A DNA stretch of 64,000 bases from Candidatus Cloacimonadales bacterium. Lineage in GTDB: Bacteria > Cloacimonadota > Cloacimonadia > Cloacimonadales > JAIOQZ01. The DNA lies in assembly GCA_963674825.1 (NCBI GenBank), contig OY771587.1, forward strand, positions 1,184,001-1,248,000. The letters are read 5' to 3'. Under the pieces are notes generated by a model. It saw only the letters and a program-made list of their open reading frames with translations. It did not search any database and was not told the origin of the DNA. Positions 56,769 to 64,000 of this stretch are shown here, piece after piece; position 1 is the first letter of the stretch; every line of letters begins with the position of its first letter. The position numbers and the translations under genes are program-made.

Positions 56769-56794
56769 AAAAAGGGGCCTCCAAAGAAGCCCCT
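56769..56794 (-). terminator. Intrinsic terminator of pruA
   Basis: A5 tract, then GGGGC...GCCCC. Confidence 0.55.
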
Positions 56795-56818: not shown

Positions 56819-58444
56819 CTAGCCCAGGAAGGGATACTTGTAGTCGGTCGGCGGGTTATAGGTTTCTTTGATGGTTCTGGGATTGACCCAGCGCATGAGG
56901 TTGGAGAGTCCGCCGGCCTTGTCGTTGGTGCCGGAACCGCGCGAGCCACCGAAGGGCTGCTGTCCGACAACCGCACCGGTCGGCTTGTCGTTGATATAGA
57001 AATTACCCGCAGCGAAGCGCAGCTTGTCGAGCGCTATCATGGTGGCGTAGCGATCATTGGAGAAGATGGCCCCGGTGAGTGCATACGGCGAGGTCTGATC
57101 GCAGAGTTCGAGTGTCTCTTCGTATTTCCCATCCTCGTACACGTAGATGGTGATGACCGGGCCGAAAATCTCTTCACGCATGGTGACGAAGTTAGGATCT
57201 TTTGCCAGAATGACGGTCGGCTCGACGAAGTAGCCTTTCGATTTATCGCCGTTACCGCCGATGATCACTTCCGCGTCGTCGGAGGTCTTGGCTTGCTCGA
57301 TGTAGCTCATGATGCTGTCGAACGACTTCTCGTCGATGACGGCGTTGACGAAGTTGCTGAAATCGAGCGGATCGCCCATCTTGATCTCACCGGTCATGGA
57401 TTCTACCAGCGGAAGGATGTCGTTCCAGATGGATTTTGGGATATAGCAGCGGGAAGCTGCGGAGCATTTCTGACCCTGATATTCGAAAGCGCCACGGACG
57501 ATCGCGGTCGCGACCTGTTGCGGCTCAGCCGATTCATGGACAAAGATGAAGTCCTTACCACCGGTCTCGCCCACCAGGCGCGGATAGGAGCGCAATGGGC
57601 CGAGGTTGTGTGACACGGTTCTCCAGATGTGGTTGAAGGTGCTGTTCGAGCCGGTGAAATGAACGCCGGCAAGTTCTGTGTGCGCCAACGCAATTCGACC
57701 GATCATAGAGCCGCTTCCGGGCAGGAAGTTGATCACGCCGTCCGGCATTCCCGCTTCCTGATAGACCTTCATCAGGTAGTAGTTTGATAGCAGCGCCGTA
57801 GTAGCGGGTTTCCAGATGGTGACGTTGCCCATCAGCGCGGCCGACATATTGAGGTTCGACGCGATGGCTGTGAAATTGAACGGCGTAACCGTCATCACAA
57901 AGCCTTCCAACGGCCGGTATTCCATACGATTGAGCTGGTCGGTACCGGAATTAGGCTGATTCGCGTAGATCTGCGTTGCGAAATAGGCGTTGAAACGCAG
58001 GAAGTCAATGGCTTCGCAGGCGGAATCGATCTCGGCCTGGAAGGCGTTCTTGCTCTGACCAAGCATGGTGGCGGCGTTAATGAGCCAGCGGTACTTGGTG
58101 GAGAGCAGATGCGCGGCACGGAGCTGAATGGATACGCGCTCAACATAAGGCAGATCCATCCACTGTTTTTGCGCCTTGATCGCGGTCTCTATCGCCATCT
58201 TGACTTCGGCTTCACCCGCTTTGTGATAGGTCGCCAAAACATGTTGGTGATCGCTGGGCATAACTACGGTATCGGTATTGCCGGTGCGGATTTCCTTGCC
58301 GCCGATAATCAGCGGGATTTCGATCTGGGTAGCATGTTGCCGTTCCAGTTCCTGTGTCAGAAATTGTCTTTCGTTCGAGCCCGGCGCGTAGGAAAGGATG
58401 GGCTCATTCTTGGGCATTTCCAAGTGAAAGATTGCATTGTTCAT
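56819..58444 (-). CDS. pruA: L-glutamate gamma-semialdehyde (delta-1-pyrroline-5-carboxylate) dehydrogenase
   Basis: Start MNNAIF (58444) after GGAGG; 'NEP..SYAPGS.ER', 'TPFNFTAI', 'FTGS', 'GETGGKDF', 'EYQGQKCSA', 'EEIFGP', 'SGTNDKAG'. Confidence 0.93.
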   Translation of the reverse strand: MNNAIFHLEMPKNEPILSYAPGSNERQFLTQELERQHATQIEIPLIIGGKEIRTGNTDTVVMPSDHQHVLATYHKAGEAEVKMAIETAIKAQKQWMDLPYVERVSIQLRAAHLLSTKYRWLINAATMLGQSKNAFQAEIDSACEAIDFLRFNAYFATQIYANQPNSGTDQLNRMEYRPLEGFVMTVTPFNFTAIASNLNMSAALMGNVTIWKPATTALLSNYYLMKVYQEAGMPDGVINFLPGSGSMIGRIALAHTELAGVHFTGSNSTFNHIWRTVSHNLGPLRSYPRLVGETGGKDFIFVHESAEPQQVATAIVRGAFEYQGQKCSAASRCYIPKSIWNDILPLVESMTGEIKMGDPLDFSNFVNAVIDEKSFDSIMSYIEQAKTSDDAEVIIGGNGDKSKGYFVEPTVILAKDPNFVTMREEIFGPVITIYVYEDGKYEETLELCDQTSPYALTGAIFSNDRYATMIALDKLRFAAGNFYINDKPTGAVVGQQPFGGSRGSGTNDKAGGLSNLMRWVNPRTIKETYNPPTDYKYPFLG

Positions 58445-58490
58445 TTTTCCTCCAAAAATTTTGCTTTTTCTTTGGAGCAAGAGCTTTACT

Positions 58491-58540
58491 CTCGCCTTTC
58501 CAAACGGGAGGCGGATCGGTTTCCCAATACACCCTATCGG
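58491..58540 (-). promoter_or_regulatory. Probable Na+-sensing riboswitch (DUF1646 RNA motif) in the pruA 5' UTR
   Basis: Minus strand AUAGGGUG-U-AUUGG-GAAA-CCGAU-C-CGCCUCCCGUUUGGAAAGG: GAAA-capped hairpin plus GCCUCCC...GGAAAGG tail. It matches the DUF1646 consensus as I recall it; no covariance search was run. Confidence 0.7.
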
Positions 58541-58791
58541 TATGATTCCATGCGGCATGAGGCCGTTTAGGCGATTCATACTCGGCGATAGCGTCATTCA
58601 TTCTTTCAGGCTCTTCTTGTCAAGCCCAGTGTGCCATACTCGTTTAACATATCAACCCAAGCTTGATCCCTGGCAACTTTCCTCTGAAGCAGAACAAATC
58701 CAATTCATTATTAACCCTTGACACGTTCCAAGCATCTATCAAGCTCCGATTTCATGGCAACATTCTCCACCAGAAATATAAAGGATGAAAC

Positions 58792-59358
58792 ATGACCAGA
58801 TTCAGCATATGGCTTATTGTCGTCTCAACATTCATCATGGCAGTCGCAATCCTCTTCTTCCCCGAGTACGATATCGTTGTGTCTTTTGGCATCCGGATCA
58901 TCGCAATGATCGTTGCGATGTATTTCGCAATTCAGTTCAAGGAGTGGCGTCTCTTACCTCTGGCCGCCATGTTTCTCTTGATGGCCTTCAGGCAGGCGAT
59001 GACATTCCTCATCTGGTGCAAAGTCATGGACAACTCAGCATACGTCAAATCGCTCAGTGAGCTTCCTGGAAACATTGTCACCCTATTGGGATTGAGCTCC
59101 ATCTGCTACCTGGGTTATCTGATCTCCCAGAAGAACAAAGTCATCCACACACAGAGCTGCCAGATCAACCAACTGAAAGACCTGCTACCCATCTGCTCTA
59201 AATGCAAGAAAGTACGCAACGACGACGGCTACTGGCAACAGATCGATTCGTACATCGAACAACATACGGATACAGAATTCAGTCACGGCCTGTGCGATGA
59301 TTGCATGAAAGAGCTATACGGAAAAGAACCTTGGTTCAAGGATAAGAAGAAGAAATAA
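58792..59358 (+). CDS. Membrane protein with C-terminal Cys/His motif domain
   Basis: About four TM helices, then 'LLPICSKCKKVRNDDGYWQQIDSYI...FSHGLCDDC'. Confidence 0.8.
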   Translation: MTRFSIWLIVVSTFIMAVAILFFPEYDIVVSFGIRIIAMIVAMYFAIQFKEWRLLPLAAMFLLMAFRQAMTFLIWCKVMDNSAYVKSLSELPGNIVTLLGLSSICYLGYLISQKNKVIHTQSCQINQLKDLLPICSKCKKVRNDDGYWQQIDSYIEQHTDTEFSHGLCDDCMKELYGKEPWFKDKKKK

Positions 59359-59498: not shown

Positions 59499-61571
59499 AT
59501 GAGAGAGGGTTTCAGGGTAATCATCGTTCTTCTATTGTTGTCCGGGCTTTGCTACGCCCAGGAATATCGCGTCAACACCAATCACAAAATCAAGCGCCCG
59601 GCTACGCAGCGGCAAGTGCCGGAATGGAATTTTGAGGTCGAACCAACCGAGCTCGTCGAAATCCACAACGAAGCCGCGTTTCATCCGAATGCCATTTCAG
59701 TTCAACAACAAAATGAAGACTCCTATAGTGGTGTCTTTACGCTTTACAAGGCAAAGCTATCGGAACAAGCGCTCTCTCGTGAATTACTCTCGTATATCAA
59801 TTGTGATGGGACGCTCAATAGTACGAACTATGTGTCGCAGTACAACAACAGCGAAGGAACAGGGTCAATAGCCATCGACCCGGAAACATACGATCCGATC
59901 TACGCCTGGGAGTGCTACACCGGCAACAATCCCTATCCAGATATCATGCTGGGTATGGATGCCTGGCATCTTCTGGGATCTCCGGGATTACTATCGACAC
60001 CGATCATGATCTTCAACAACAACGATGCGGACGAATTCCCTGAGTATGAGCCACAGGAAAATCGCTATCTACAGAAACCGATCATTCTGATCAGCCATGC
60101 GCCAAGCTATAATGAAGATGGGAAACGCAGAGTTTTCGTCATTGCCAGTCAGCCCAACAACAATCGCTACGATTCCGATCCCTTGTCACAGCTCGTGATC
60201 GCATGGACCGATTTCACGACGACCGATATTGAATGGGGGAATTTTCCATCGCTCGATTGGAGTTTTGCCACGAACATCAACCTTGTCGAGCCCTGCACAC
60301 CTTGCGATGTAAAGACTCATTTCTCTGCGGCATGCGACGAATCAGGTAATATCGCCATTGTTGGCTGGAAAGAAGGACCGTGGGATCAATTGCCACAGGA
60401 TGAACCGGAGTTCTTCGTCTTATACAACGATAATTACGGCGAAGGCGATTGGGAGCTGCATGAAACCAACCTCGAACTGGAGGTAGACTCACCCTCGAAT
60501 CAAAACGGCGTTCCATGGTTACAGGGAACGGAAGAGCTTGCTTTTGCACCAGTCTATGCAGGCAATTTCACCGCACAATGGGATGACGAGGGTCGCCTCC
60601 ATGTCCAGATGCCTTTCACGCTCAGGGGGCTTCAGTTCCGCGTGCCAACCGTCTGGCCGCTCCTATCGCAAGTGAGAGACGTTTTCTTTGACATAGTTGA
60701 TAATGAGTTCTACAGTACCGAAATTTATCCTCAAAGCACAAGTAGCGAACTCAATGTTCCCTTCCTTCCGTGGGACATAAACAAAGATGAACAAGTTGAT
60801 GAGTTTGATCCCCAAACGGGCCAAGTCGTACCGGTCTGCACACTTCCATTCCAGCACTGGGATATGCAGTTCGCACATTACCTTAACGGCATCAAATCGG
60901 CAGTTAATCTCGATTTTGATTTCATGGCCTGTACCTGGATGGATGCGCTTGATTCTTACATCGCGCACCTTGAAGGAGAAGCCAAGCCGCCCAATATCAT
61001 GGTTAGCATATCCAATTCATCGGGTCTCCCCTGGGCAGACCCAATCATCATGAGTCCTGACCCGGATAATGAGGATGGTAACTTCGTCGATGATCTCGAA
61101 GGACAGATTCCCAATACGCCCAATTTGCAATCTCCCATTGCCTATCTTGGAGACTATTATGGACGTGTCGGGATTTCCTATATAGACGAGTATTCTCACG
61201 GTCCTTATGGAGAAATTGGCGGTACCCTGCGCTATATGTGGCTTTCTGTCGAGTACAACGTCTGGGTGCTTGATAACGCTGATGAAAACGCACAGCCGGT
61301 AATCTCACGCGGAAATCATCCCAATCCCTTCAATCCATCCACAACCATCAGCTTCGATCTTCCCACAGAACAACCGGTAACGCTCGAAGTGTACAACATT
61401 CGCGGCCAGAAGGTCAAAACGCTGGTAAATAGTATGGGAAAAAAGGGAATTAACTGCGTCGTGTGGAATGGCGACGATATGGCTGGCAAAGCCGTATCCA
61501 GCGGGATCTATTTCTATCGGTTGCAGACGGAGAATCAGTCCATCACGCAGAAGATGCTGATGGTGAAGTAA
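59499..61571 (+). CDS. Secreted acidic protein with C-terminal FlgD-Ig/T9SS-like domain
   Basis: GGGAGG RBS, signal peptide; 'NHPNPFNPSTTISF...SSGIYFYRL...KMLMVK'. Confidence 0.82.
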   Translation: MREGFRVIIVLLLLSGLCYAQEYRVNTNHKIKRPATQRQVPEWNFEVEPTELVEIHNEAAFHPNAISVQQQNEDSYSGVFTLYKAKLSEQALSRELLSYINCDGTLNSTNYVSQYNNSEGTGSIAIDPETYDPIYAWECYTGNNPYPDIMLGMDAWHLLGSPGLLSTPIMIFNNNDADEFPEYEPQENRYLQKPIILISHAPSYNEDGKRRVFVIASQPNNNRYDSDPLSQLVIAWTDFTTTDIEWGNFPSLDWSFATNINLVEPCTPCDVKTHFSAACDESGNIAIVGWKEGPWDQLPQDEPEFFVLYNDNYGEGDWELHETNLELEVDSPSNQNGVPWLQGTEELAFAPVYAGNFTAQWDDEGRLHVQMPFTLRGLQFRVPTVWPLLSQVRDVFFDIVDNEFYSTEIYPQSTSSELNVPFLPWDINKDEQVDEFDPQTGQVVPVCTLPFQHWDMQFAHYLNGIKSAVNLDFDFMACTWMDALDSYIAHLEGEAKPPNIMVSISNSSGLPWADPIIMSPDPDNEDGNFVDDLEGQIPNTPNLQSPIAYLGDYYGRVGISYIDEYSHGPYGEIGGTLRYMWLSVEYNVWVLDNADENAQPVISRGNHPNPFNPSTTISFDLPTEQPVTLEVYNIRGQKVKTLVNSMGKKGINCVVWNGDDMAGKAVSSGIYFYRLQTENQSITQKMLMVK

Positions 61572-61654: not shown

Positions 61655-64000
61655 TTATTTTATCATAAGCATTTTTCGTGTATCGGAGATGGTTGAAGTC
61701 TTCATCCTGTAGAAATAGAGCCCCGACGAGACCGATTTTCCGCAATCGTTGCGACCATCCCATCCAACCGCGTATGTACCGGCAATCTGCGATTCATTCA
61801 CCAGCGTACGCACAAGCTGGCCTCGTTGATTATAGATCGAGAGGTTAACCGGGCTATCTTCCGCAAGCTGATAGCTAATGGTCGTGGATGGATTGAACGG
61901 ATTGGGGAAGTTAACGCCTAGAAGCGTCTCCATGGGCAGCTCAGGAGTATCACCTCCGCCTTCACCTCCACCCGGTTTGATCGTCAGTGAAACCGGTCCG
62001 AAAAGCTGAGAAGTACCATTCATCTCATAGCCCTCGAGCCAGTAATAATAGGTCTCATCCATTGCCACGTCTTCATCGACGAAGCTGTATCGCTGTTCGA
62101 CGGATGTATTGTGCGCCGGGATAATCTCAGATGTGACAAGAATCGCCGTATCACCGCTTTCATCCGTATCCCGCAATACATGATAGCCAATCATATCGGA
62201 TTCCGTCTGTGTTTCCCAGGCAATCAGCGCAAAGCACTCACCGGTAAGCGCAGCAGAGAATGAACTGAGCGTAATCGCGAGTGTTGATTCATCGTAAACC
62301 GCGATCGCGAAATCGGAGAAAGCGCTGAGTCCATGAACAGTGAGAAGATTCCCCGCGATAGACAGGGTTGCACCCAATTCGTTGACATCAACCCACTCGG
62401 AACCGCTGTTGGGCCGCTTGAGGACGTGCAACATCTCGTAGTCTTCCACCACCAGATCGGAGATATCGAACGTGATATCGTAAGTTCCCACTGTCGAGCT
62501 GTTCGGCGAGATCGTCCACCACACGGCATAGAGGCTATCGATATCTGCAGGAAGTTCACCCGTAACGCCGGGCTGGCTGAACAGTTGCGTGGCCTGTAGT
62601 CGTGTTACGCTTTGGTTGCCGTCAAACTGGATCACCAAATCGATATTGGGAATTTGAATAGGGCTGGTGGTACCGGAAGCAATATAGGTGGTTTCGTTTA
62701 ATTCATCGCTACCACTGTACCACGTGAGGAAAGGATAACCGTTGTTTGTCTCGTTATCCACACCCCATGTATTACCGGACCCATTAGCGTTTTCACCCAG
62801 CAGATCCCAACCGGCATCGATGAAAATTGGAGCGTCGCTCATCTGGTCGGTTGTGAGCCCGGTTCCGACAGCGCTGTTCGACTTGTTGGACGTGTGCACA
62901 TCCCAGAAGCAGCCACTAGCCAAAGCGCTCGATGCCGCTGCCGCGAAACCACCCGTGGTTCCACTTCCATCAACTCGACCCTTGCAATAGCAATTAGTCA
63001 CGCTTGCACTTCCGAGGTAACCGAGGAAGCCGCCGTAGTTCGTACCACCGCCGTCGATATAGCAAATGCTGTAGCAGTCCTGGATCGTGCATGTATAAGG
63101 TGAAGACGGGCTAGAGCTTCCAATCAAACCACCGACCGAATTGCTTCCTTCGATATCTCCGGAGCTGAAACAGCGCTTCACGGCTCCACCCTGTTGATAT
63201 CCGACGATGCCGCCGACCCGGGTGCCTCCTTCGACAAAGACTGTCGAGACACACTCGCTGATGGTAGAATTACCCCAGAGTTGCCCAACCAATCCGCTAA
63301 CATTGGTCGTGCCGTCAACATCACCCGACACGGAGCATCCGTTTACCGTTGAATGGCTCAGTGTTCCGACGAATCCACCAACGCTCGTCGCGCCTTTGAC
63401 ATCAATGTTTTCAAGGGTCAGATCGCTGATCTGCGCGGTGTATGCGTAACCGAAAAACCCGGTGCAGTCAGCCGTGCTATGGTTATTATAATAACCGCTT
63501 ATCGTGTGACCATCACCATCGAACGAGCCGGTAAACCGATTATTGAAAGTGCCAATGGAGGTAGCCCCACCGGTAACTGCGGTCAGCGAGCTGGCATCGA
63601 TATCGGAAATCAGCAGGAAGTCCGCGCTCCATACACTGGAATTGTTGATCAACCAGAGAAGGTTGGCCAGGTTGATGATTTGATATGGCGATTCAGGCGT
63701 ACCGCTTCCAGAAGCCTTGAGAGCTGGATAATTGAATCCACCATACCATGCGAGGCTGGGGTATTCGTCCGATATGCTGTCGAACCGCCATACGCCGGCA
63801 CTTGGTTCGCCGATAACAGTCAGATTGAAATTCCAGCCGGCGTTGACGAAATTCGCCAGATTATGTGTCATCTCATCTGTTGTAAGTCCCGTTCCGCCAC
63901 CGTAGGTTGTCGTTACCCCGACCGTCTGGGAGTCCCAGAAACAACCGCTCATGGATACACTGCCTTCACCCGTTGCGATGAGAGCGCCTTTGGTCCCACC
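61655..64000 (-). CDS. Secreted GLUG-repeat protein with C-terminal FlgD-Ig/T9SS-like domain (5' partial)
   Basis: Frame is open to the window end. 'GSGTPESPYQI', 'FTGSFDGDGHTI', repeated 'VGGLIG/VGGIVG', 'FWD..TS'; C-terminal 'NFPNPFNPSTTISY...KMLMIK'. Confidence 0.85.
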   Translation of the reverse strand, partial: GGTKGALIATGEGSVSMSGCFWDSQTVGVTTTYGGGTGLTTDEMTHNLANFVNAGWNFNLTVIGEPSAGVWRFDSISDEYPSLAWYGGFNYPALKASGSGTPESPYQIINLANLLWLINNSSVWSADFLLISDIDASSLTAVTGGATSIGTFNNRFTGSFDGDGHTISGYYNNHSTADCTGFFGYAYTAQISDLTLENIDVKGATSVGGFVGTLSHSTVNGCSVSGDVDGTTNVSGLVGQLWGNSTISECVSTVFVEGGTRVGGIVGYQQGGAVKRCFSSGDIEGSNSVGGLIGSSSPSSPYTCTIQDCYSICYIDGGGTNYGGFLGYLGSASVTNCYCKGRVDGSGTTGGFAAAASSALASGCFWDVHTSNKSNSAVGTGLTTDQMSDAPIFIDAGWDLLGENANGSGNTWGVDNETNNGYPFLTWYSGSDELNETTYIASGTTSPIQIPNIDLVIQFDGNQSVTRLQATQLFSQPGVTGELPADIDSLYAVWWTISPNSSTVGTYDITFDISDLVVEDYEMLHVLKRPNSGSEWVDVNELGATLSIAGNLLTVHGLSAFSDFAIAVYDESTLAITLSSFSAALTGECFALIAWETQTESDMIGYHVLRDTDESGDTAILVTSEIIPAHNTSVEQRYSFVDEDVAMDETYYYWLEGYEMNGTSQLFGPVSLTIKPGGGEGGGDTPELPMETLLGVNFPNPFNPSTTISYQLAEDSPVNLSIYNQRGQLVRTLVNESQIAGTYAVGWDGRNDCGKSVSSGLYFYRMKTSTISDTRKMLMIK

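Follow-up and report, generated by a model that had tools for sequence, protein, structure and literature searches.

A P3-less molybdenum/tungsten cofactor riboswitch aptamer in the leader of pruA, a P5C dehydrogenase gene of Cloacimonadales

The Moco motif is an RNA family associated with the molybdenum and tungsten pterin cofactors (Moco and Tuco). It comprises the helices P1–P5, with a GNRA tetraloop on P4 and its receptor in P2, and the element ahead of Escherichia coli moaABCDE is a demonstrated OFF switch, as set out in the main text of Regulski et al. 2008 (PMC2408646). According to the same text, 58 of 176 representatives lack P3; these P3-less RNAs track the use of Tuco and are reported almost exclusively with genes for molybdopterin (MPT) synthesis or for tungsten enzymes. 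Here, we describe a P3-less RNA in a stretch of 64,000 nucleotides (the window) from contig OY771587.1 of a Candidatus Cloacimonadales bacterium, where it forms the leader of pruA, the gene for L-glutamate gamma-semialdehyde (P5C) dehydrogenase. Judged by covariance and conserved nucleotides, the RNA is a genuine member of the known Moco/Tuco riboswitch family and of its P3-less, tungsten-associated subclass. The novelty is the regulatory link to pruA and the cofactor-auxotroph setting, not the RNA itself: an ordinary member of a riboswitch family has an unusual target, an enzyme unrelated to the sensed cofactor. We favour, with some reserve, the reading that this RNA is a translational OFF switch that hides the ribosome-binding site of pruA when pterin cofactor is bound, and that its purpose is an enzyme swap.

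The aptamer and the gene that it precedes

All positions are in the numbering of the window, and the riboswitch and pruA both lie on its minus strand. The genome that holds the window (G000) is a single contig of 3.89 Mb, 99.6% complete, and the comparison set is made up of G000 and 40 further genomes of the order (41 in all). Only eight of these belong to the taxonomic family of the window, which limits the covariation that can be seen in the leader platform. The features of the locus are as follows.

58477..58599 (-): Moco/Tuco riboswitch aptamer RF01055, P3-less (Rfam cmscan, 60.6 bits)
58588-58584 / 58496-58492 (-): P1 core, UCGCC with GGCGA (RF01055 alignment)
58571-58566 and 58552-58548 (-): receptor-like CCUAAA and CAUGG (aligned to the consensus CUAA...AuGg)
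58534-58530 (-): GGGUG (read from sequence)
58528-58515 (-): AUUGG-GAAA-CCGAU (read from sequence)
58523-58520 (-): GAAA tetraloop of P4 (read from sequence)
58512-58506 (-): GCCUCCC (read from sequence)
58504-58495 (-): UUUGGAAAGG (read from sequence)
58471..58504 (-): anti-sequestor hairpin, predicted for the state without ligand (lowest-energy structure when the 3' part is folded alone)
58450..58477 (-): hairpin of 9 bp sequestering the Shine–Dalgarno sequence (SD), CUCCAAAGA 58477-58469 with UUUUUGGAG 58458-58450 (fold with aptamer enforced)
58449..58453 (-): SD of pruA, GGAGG, 4 nt before the ATG (read from sequence)
56819..58444 (-): pruA, L-glutamate gamma-semialdehyde (P5C) dehydrogenase, 541 aa (TIGR01236, Pfam Aldedh)
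56773..56794 (-): terminator-like GC-rich hairpin and T-run, about 25 nt past the pruA stop (pattern scan, consensus match only)

At gathering thresholds RF01055 is the sole Rfam 15 match in the window (60.6 bits against a threshold of 36, E 4.4e-12). The alignment spans model positions 1-135 of 135, with the columns of P3 deleted and just g...A left in their place. A genome-wide search returns the pruA aptamer as the single RF01055 match in the 3.89 Mb (E 6.3e-14). When 58300-58800 was compared with all 4227 Rfam families at E<=10, RF01055 was accompanied by four chance-level matches (a miRNA, two snoRNAs and a CRISPR repeat) and by no family of the Na+/DUF1646 type.

All conserved nucleotides of the family core are intact in the G000 aptamer, and the GNRA tetraloop on P4 and the receptor in P2 can be recognised, by sequence alone. 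In an alignment of the 61 aptamers of the order, the G000 copy has helices P1, P2, P4 and P5 and makes 27 of the 28 consensus pairs; over the whole alignment 1576 of 1706 pair cells are canonical (92.4%), compensatory changes are found in 25 of the 28 pairs, and the P3 stem is missing in 60 of the 61 copies. Four pruA-linked aptamers of one taxonomic family (L008, L036, L052 and L054) carry a P5 region of the form GCCUUCC ... UGAAAAGG, as against the usual GCCUCCC ... UGGAAAGG. The difference amounts to a compensatory change from C-G to U-A, and sister aptamers in the same genomes retain the usual form. The leader 58599-58430 folds with -50.7 kcal/mol (z = -2.97) and the platform 58505-58439 with -16.6 kcal/mol (z -2.93), energies that are each equalled by one of 200 shuffles.

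PruA itself scores 770.9 bits with TIGR01236 (cut-off 613.6) over residues 12-539 of 541 and also matches Pfam Aldedh. It is an NAD-type aldehyde dehydrogenase (ALDH), which needs no pterin cofactor. The gene starts at ATG 58444-58442, from which the N-terminus MNN..(F/I).L..P.NE, common to relatives, is read. A further in-frame ATG at 58597, inside the aptamer, opens a 592-aa reading frame (56819-58597) that is an artefact running through the aptamer; automatic gene calling could stretch pruA over the riboswitch in this way and hide it. Given the terminator-like hairpin after the pruA stop, the aptamer would control pruA alone, and probably does.

An earlier note on this stretch had read a Na+ (DUF1646) riboswitch at 58445-58540, ahead of a P5C dehydrogenase gene. 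Its gene assignment is upheld by the TIGR01236 score, and the motifs that it quoted, like the hairpin burying the ribosome-binding site, are all present at the places given on the minus strand. The span was too short, as the structured element reaches 5' to 58599 (Rfam match 58477-58599), and class and ligand were wrong, the covariance-model comparison having returned RF01055 and nothing of the DUF1646 type, an outcome that the note itself had listed among the grounds for refuting its reading. The note had further placed the enzyme in proline and ornithine catabolism, of which the ornithine side is the more likely. Pro_dh, for proline dehydrogenase, has no match in the G000 genome, and an ornithine aminotransferase is present (TIGR01885, 681.5 bits); PruA therefore probably serves the breakdown of ornithine and arginine to glutamate rather than the oxidation of proline.

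Expression platform and direction of control

With the aptamer pairs enforced, the minimum-energy fold of the leader forms the 9-bp hairpin of CUCCAAAGA and UUUUUGGAG, which covers GGAGG at 58453-58449. The minimum-energy fold of the 3' part alone is a different one, UUUGGA[AAG]GCGAGAGU-AAA-GCUCUUGC-UCCAAA (58504-58471; -17.9 kcal/mol, and also the lowest-energy structure of the platform 58505-58439), in which UUUGGA 58504-58499 pairs with UCCAAA 58476-58471, and GCGAGAGU 58495-58488 with GCUCUUGC 58484-58477. Since this anti-sequestor takes the 3' side of P5 and most of the 3' strand of P1, it is mutually exclusive with the folded aptamer. In the mechanism that we propose, the 3' end of the ligand-free aptamer (UUUGGA...GCGAGAGU) would pair with GCUCUUGC-UCCAAA, leaving GGAGG free and allowing PruA to be made; with ligand bound, P1 and P5 would hold these bases of the aptamer, CUCCAAAGA would pair with UUUUUGGAG, and the SD would be buried.

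The stems of the sequestor are kept and its loops are variable in the six pruA leaders of the window's taxonomic family, and the loop between CUCCAAAG and UUUUGGAG varies across the family leaders. The anti-sequestor design also recurs, with different arm sequences, in the leaders of G001-G004 and G007: the arms read GCGAGA/UCUCGU in G001 and GCGAA...UUCGU, with an inserted hairpin, in G004 and G007, and pairing is preserved. Three platform designs precede pruA in all. In G022 and G016 the SD of pruA (AAGGAG) is itself the 3' strand of P1, with the AUG 7 nt on, an OFF design of the moaA type, and the leaders of a third family have a long spacer.

Control is most likely translational, through the hairpin that buries the SD, as the earlier note had also proposed. 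Transcription attenuation was considered and rejected: there is no terminator-like site between the aptamer and the ATG, where the sequestor is followed by GGAAAAAUG and no U-run. A scan upstream of the aptamer (58600-58800, minus strand) returned no sigma-70-like promoter, a result that says little as the scan covers the sigma-70 consensus only.

The direction of control was modelled for 56 of the 61 leaders as the probability that the SD is unpaired, P(SD unpaired); the five left out (three Fe-hydrogenase and two Oxidored_molyb-like) have an unclear first gene or start codon. In the global model the bound state has the aptamer pairs enforced and the free state has the 5' strand of P1 blocked, with the following mean values.

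PruA leaders (n=13): bound 0.14, free 0.36; 5 OFF-like, 0 ON-like
270-aa family leaders (n=26): bound 0.11, free 0.36; 15 OFF-like, 0 opposite
ECF leaders (n=5): bound 0.18, free 0.54; 4 OFF-like
Aldehyde oxidoreductase (AOR) leaders (n=5): bound 0.61, free 0.19; 4 ON-like

A local model reproduces this pattern of classes, with eight of 13 PruA leaders OFF-like and none ON-like, and three of five AOR leaders ON-like. In the free state modelled for the AOR leaders, CCUCC and GUUUG of the aptamer itself capture the SD; in the P6CDH-like leaders (G004, G007) the SD is predicted to be paired in every state. Taken together, the models suggest that the leaders of pruA and of transport-type genes are OFF switches and those of AOR genes ON switches. 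For G000, the local model with only the 3' end of the aptamer free predicts a P(SD unpaired) of 0.20 bound and 0.87 free.

Sister aptamers, tungsten enzymes and cofactor supply

Aptamers above the gathering score, 61 in number, are carried by 33 of the 41 genomes. Their first downstream genes were classed by BLAST clustering, with NCBIfam applied to 30 of the 61 and Pfam to nine representatives, and fall into these groups.

27 of 61 aptamers: unknown lipoprotein family of about 270 aa
15 of 61: aldehyde dehydrogenases (13 PruA, 2 P6C-dehydrogenase-like)
5 of 61: AOR
5 of 61: ECF S-component-like (PF09819)
3 of 61: Fe-hydrogenase operons
2 of 61: WtpA
2 of 61: TonB receptors
2 of 61: Oxidored_molyb-like

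Targets concerned with the synthesis, transport or use of the cofactor (WtpA, AOR and Oxidored_molyb-like genes) are recognisable behind sister copies and not behind the G000 copy, which precedes pruA. The pruA-linked aptamers occur in 13 genomes of five taxonomic families, and the four species of the window's genus all have exactly one aptamer, each on pruA. The earlier note had pointed to pruA orthologues as the place to look for its motif, and in part of the order the RF01055 aptamer is indeed found there: pruA is single-copy in 28 of the 41 genomes, with an aptamer in front of 13 copies and none detected before 15, one of which, in G033, stands at the very end of its contig, so that its leader cannot be assessed. 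Outside the order the link was rare among the loci searched. Of the 80 nearest pruA loci in genome contigs one has the aptamer (L116), and Rfam, run on 20 of the 80, confirmed only L116. None of 80 pruA loci from metagenome contigs has it, and there the closest PruA was no nearer than 68% identity. The nhmmer profile used in these scans was sequence-only and built from this order, so that divergent aptamers could escape it. A FastTree of the 61 aptamers places the pruA-linked copies in about five places, although its 120 columns are too short to settle origins.

The domain AFOR_C, which marks AOR, was found in 29 of the 41 genomes: 28 of the 33 with an aptamer and one of the eight without. The corresponding counts are 12 of 13 for genomes with an aptamer before pruA and six of 15 for those whose pruA lacks one. 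In G000 the only AOR (AFOR_C, 304.5 bits) is split over three genes (L061 2309-7462), assigned by domain matches, in the region G000:C1:2625808-2633457 (= L061 2309-9958). The three genes encode AFOR_N fused to a NuoE-like 2Fe-2S domain (430 aa), a NuoF-like FMN/NADH protein (626 aa) and a Fer2_4 (2Fe-2S)/4Fe-4S module fused to AFOR_C (663 aa). Next in line are a gene of the ThiF family and one for a P6CDH-like ALDH, the orthologue of which is aptamer-controlled in G004 and G007. The split AOR has the appearance of a tungsten aldehyde oxidoreductase that is linked to NAD(H) and possibly bifurcating, and the long AFOR_C form is found in most AOR-positive genomes of the order.

Whole-genome profile searches of G000 found no MoaC, MoeA_N, MoaE or ModA, and no true MoaA (best match 48.9 bits against a cut-off of 284); there is one MoCF_biosynth match, within a 417-aa reading frame. 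Across the 41 genomes MoaC was found in three and MoeA_N in two, while the same searches match 11 of 14 control genomes. Both MoaC and MoeA are present in G015 and G038 only, the genomes with aptamer-controlled WtpA. As recognisable biosynthesis genes are missing and AOR is kept, the sensed cofactor or a precursor of it may be imported, and the cofactor is presumably acquired from outside the cell. An ECF-type module in G000 (G000:C1:3010955-3014540 = L062 2456-6040) lies after a radical-SAM/DUF2344 gene and encodes an S-component-like protein (PF09819), an Oxidored_molyb-like protein (316 aa), two small open reading frames and two ABC ATPases. The G000 module has no aptamer in front, and homologues are aptamer-controlled in relatives (five S-component and two Oxidored_molyb-like). 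That the order keeps AOR and a cofactor sensor without recognisable synthesis makes the source of the cofactor a testable question, to which the lipoprotein under the aptamer, the ECF module and the TonB receptors offer candidate answers.

The lipoprotein of about 270 aa, the commonest gene under the aptamer, has an invariant Cys19 after its signal peptide; two members (G004, G007) are about 610 aa long. Its loci are L005-L007, L009-L012, L016-L021, L023, L026-L028, L034, L040, L042, L044-L047, L049 and L051. No Pfam match (E<=1) is common to more than two of 17 members, NCBIfam gives none, and the best PDB match has E 0.085. Comparison with the Oxidored_molyb-like protein of G000 by hhalign gives a probability of 2%, and tblastn shows the family to be absent from G000. 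We regard it as a candidate for a protein that binds or takes up tungstate or the pterin cofactor. The aptamers before four ECF S-component genes (L041, L055, L056 and L057) have an extra hairpin in the loop of P5, with arms like CUCUCCGGAGUGAGAG, and are 137-177 nt long. At L048, L053 and L058 an aptamer with the SD in the 3' strand of P1 stands before a short open reading frame, and the gene for an [FeFe]-hydrogenase large subunit follows 220-490 nt downstream.

Within the window, the divergent gene upstream of pruA (58792-59358, plus strand) encodes 188 aa, hydrophobic in the N-terminal half and rich in Cys at the C-terminus (CSKCKK...HGLCDDC), and the protein has no Pfam or NCBIfam match. 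The two large secreted proteins of 59499-61571 (plus strand) and 61655-63952 (minus strand) share a similar C-terminal segment of about 80 residues (…NPFNPSTTISF/Y…GxYFYR…KMLMxK), which we take to resemble a type IX secretion sorting domain.

Purpose, rival readings and described counterparts

An enzyme swap is likely to be the most economical reading of the link to pruA. Cells short of tungsten cofactor would make cofactor-free, NAD-dependent aldehyde dehydrogenases, here PruA, and would shut them down once tungsten AOR can be loaded. For a reaction of the same kind, AOR yields electrons of lower potential. If the swap holds, tungsten AOR would have an unrecognised job in oxidising amino-acid semialdehydes with low-potential electron output, which bears on how fermenting and syntrophic anaerobes balance their energy. 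A wider version of this idea, which we put forward tentatively and hold to be somewhat doubtful, is a regulon in which the P3-less aptamer reports on tungsten cofactor, or on a pterin precursor, that the cell has salvaged from the microbes around it. Uptake-type genes (the lipoprotein, the ECF module and the TonB receptors) would be switched off with cofactor along with PruA and the P6CDH-like enzyme, AOR would be switched on, and in the window's genus the regulon would have shrunk to the pruA switch alone. The split AOR with its NuoEFG fusions would then replace PruA in the fermentation of ornithine and arginine, and the pterin cofactor would be a shared good in anaerobic consortia.

Several points weigh against the swap and the OFF switch that serves it. 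We know of no AOR that oxidises glutamate semialdehyde; the isofunction of the split AOR and PruA is only inferred, and semialdehydes are no more than putative substrates of this AOR. Six of the 15 genomes with an aptamer-less pruA have AOR, which means that the swap is not obligatory. The genomes of the order are related and not independent, so that counts of co-occurrence overstate the support that they give. The Fe-hydrogenase operons look OFF-type too, which the swap does not explain. In the main text of Regulski et al. the link between P3-less RNAs and Tuco is a correlation, the ligand of the P3-less aptamer never having been directly shown (PMC2408646). As to direction, the global model of the G000 leader gives just 0.20 bound against 0.28 free; and CCUCC, when it is available, base-pairs with the SD (P unpaired 0.01), as it does in the unconstrained minimum-energy fold, where the pairing of CCUCC with the ribosome-binding site that the earlier note had foreseen is reproduced. 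With such pairing the SD would be covered in both states, or the switch could work the opposite way. The direction in G000 thus depends on the model, and we consider OFF polarity probable.

The opposite polarity would keep the same Moco/Tuco aptamer and have CCUCC hold the SD in the ligand-free state until ligand releases it, so that PruA is co-induced with the tungsten enzymes, for instance where both serve one route of amino-acid fermentation. The unconstrained fold and the local model with CCUCC free agree with this, and this very pairing seems to be the one at work in the AOR leaders. With the aptamer enforced, however, the SD of G000 still lies in the 9-bp hairpin (P unpaired 0.20), so that ligand would not free it; the conserved pair of sequestor and anti-sequestor would be left without a role, the SD lies within P1 in G022 and G016, and the three models show no ON-like case among the 13 PruA leaders. 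We therefore consider an ON switch quite unlikely. A rival that leaves the OFF mechanism intact and changes the ligand only is that this aptamer class senses something other than mature tungsten cofactor, be it a scavenged pterin precursor, a breakdown product or Moco itself. The near-absence of MoaC and MoeA_N from the order, and of MoaA, MoaE and ModA also from G000, fits such a ligand, as does the unproven ligand of P3-less aptamers in the published account (PMC2408646); the ECF S-component-like protein, the TonB receptors and the lipoprotein under the aptamer would suit the import of an organic compound. However, the nucleotides of the conserved core agree with the family consensus, and a regulon that includes WtpA tungstate-binding proteins and AOR fits the published correlation of P3-less RNAs with tungsten, and we rate a different ligand as unlikely.

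That the aptamer is a decaying or idle remnant, with no regulatory role in the pruA leader, seems very improbable to us. PruA needs no pterin cofactor, and the G000 copy is the lowest-scoring pruA-linked copy of its genus (60.6 against 62.5-66.4 bits); yet its conserved nucleotides are all intact and 27 of 28 pairs are formed, the arrangement is kept in all four species of the genus and in five taxonomic families, the P5 change to CCUUCC with UGAAAAGG is compensatory in the pruA-linked copies of one family, and the platform is conserved around variable loops. The Na+ riboswitch of the DUF1646 type, which would have coupled salt to proline and ornithine catabolism, can be given next to no weight. 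It drew on the visual likeness of short motifs and on an SD-burying hairpin that is real, whereas no such family matches even at E<=10 (we take DUF1646 to be included in Rfam 15) and RF01055 matches full-length with 60.6 bits. The sister copies in relatives precede tungstate transport and AOR genes rather than ion transporters, and the neighbours of pruA (an amidohydrolase, a PotD-like binding protein and an ECF sigma factor) show no Na+ or ion-transport association. The inference from salt to osmolyte turnover falls along with the Na+ class.

Set beside the E. coli moaABCDE riboswitch, the window's RNA belongs to the same covariance family and shares P1, P2, P4 and P5, the GAAA on P4 with its receptor in P2, the conserved CCUCC and GGAAAGG junctions, and, most likely, translational control through the SD. 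It differs in lacking P3 and in placing the SD in a separate hairpin with an anti-sequestor instead of in P1; its target neither makes, transports nor uses the cofactor, and its host has no recognisable biosynthesis genes. The P3-less Tuco subclass, found for example in Clostridia and Syntrophomonas wolfei, likewise lacks P3 and occurs in anaerobes with tungsten-enzyme genes, and the sister copies here stand before WtpA and AOR. Regulski et al. only speculate, in their main text, that Tuco might repress a gene if an alternative, Tuco-using pathway exists (PMC2408646), and the word 'dehydrogenase' is absent from that text. We found no paper linking a Moco riboswitch to an aldehyde dehydrogenase, in a search that excluded subscription journals and supplements.

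A parallel at the level of enzymes is offered by Aromatoleum aromaticum, from which a tungsten AOR was purified using a mutant without the aldehyde dehydrogenase normally used; according to the available account (PMC6365974), AOR and phenylacetaldehyde dehydrogenase cover one step, and AOR replaces the deleted enzyme. That AOR works with NAD through extra subunits, and the NuoE/F/G-like fusions described here suggest the same, while the account (PMC6365974) involves no riboswitch, a different subunit architecture, and aromatic aldehydes, not amino-acid semialdehydes. DUF1646 Na+ riboswitches resemble the pruA leader in being cis-acting leader RNAs able to gate an SD, and differ in giving no covariance-model match and in an unrelated gene neighbourhood and ligand. 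The logic proposed here is known from cobalamin riboswitches, which precede B12-independent isozymes (metE and the class I/III ribonucleotide reductases) in pairs whose shared function is established. Aptamer, cofactor and enzymes are other ones, and the isofunction of AOR and PruA is a conjecture by comparison, but in both cases a cofactor-sensing OFF switch would repress a cofactor-independent enzyme. If OFF polarity and swap both hold, the cofactor-sparing logic of the B12 type extends to the tungsten/molybdenum pterin cofactor.

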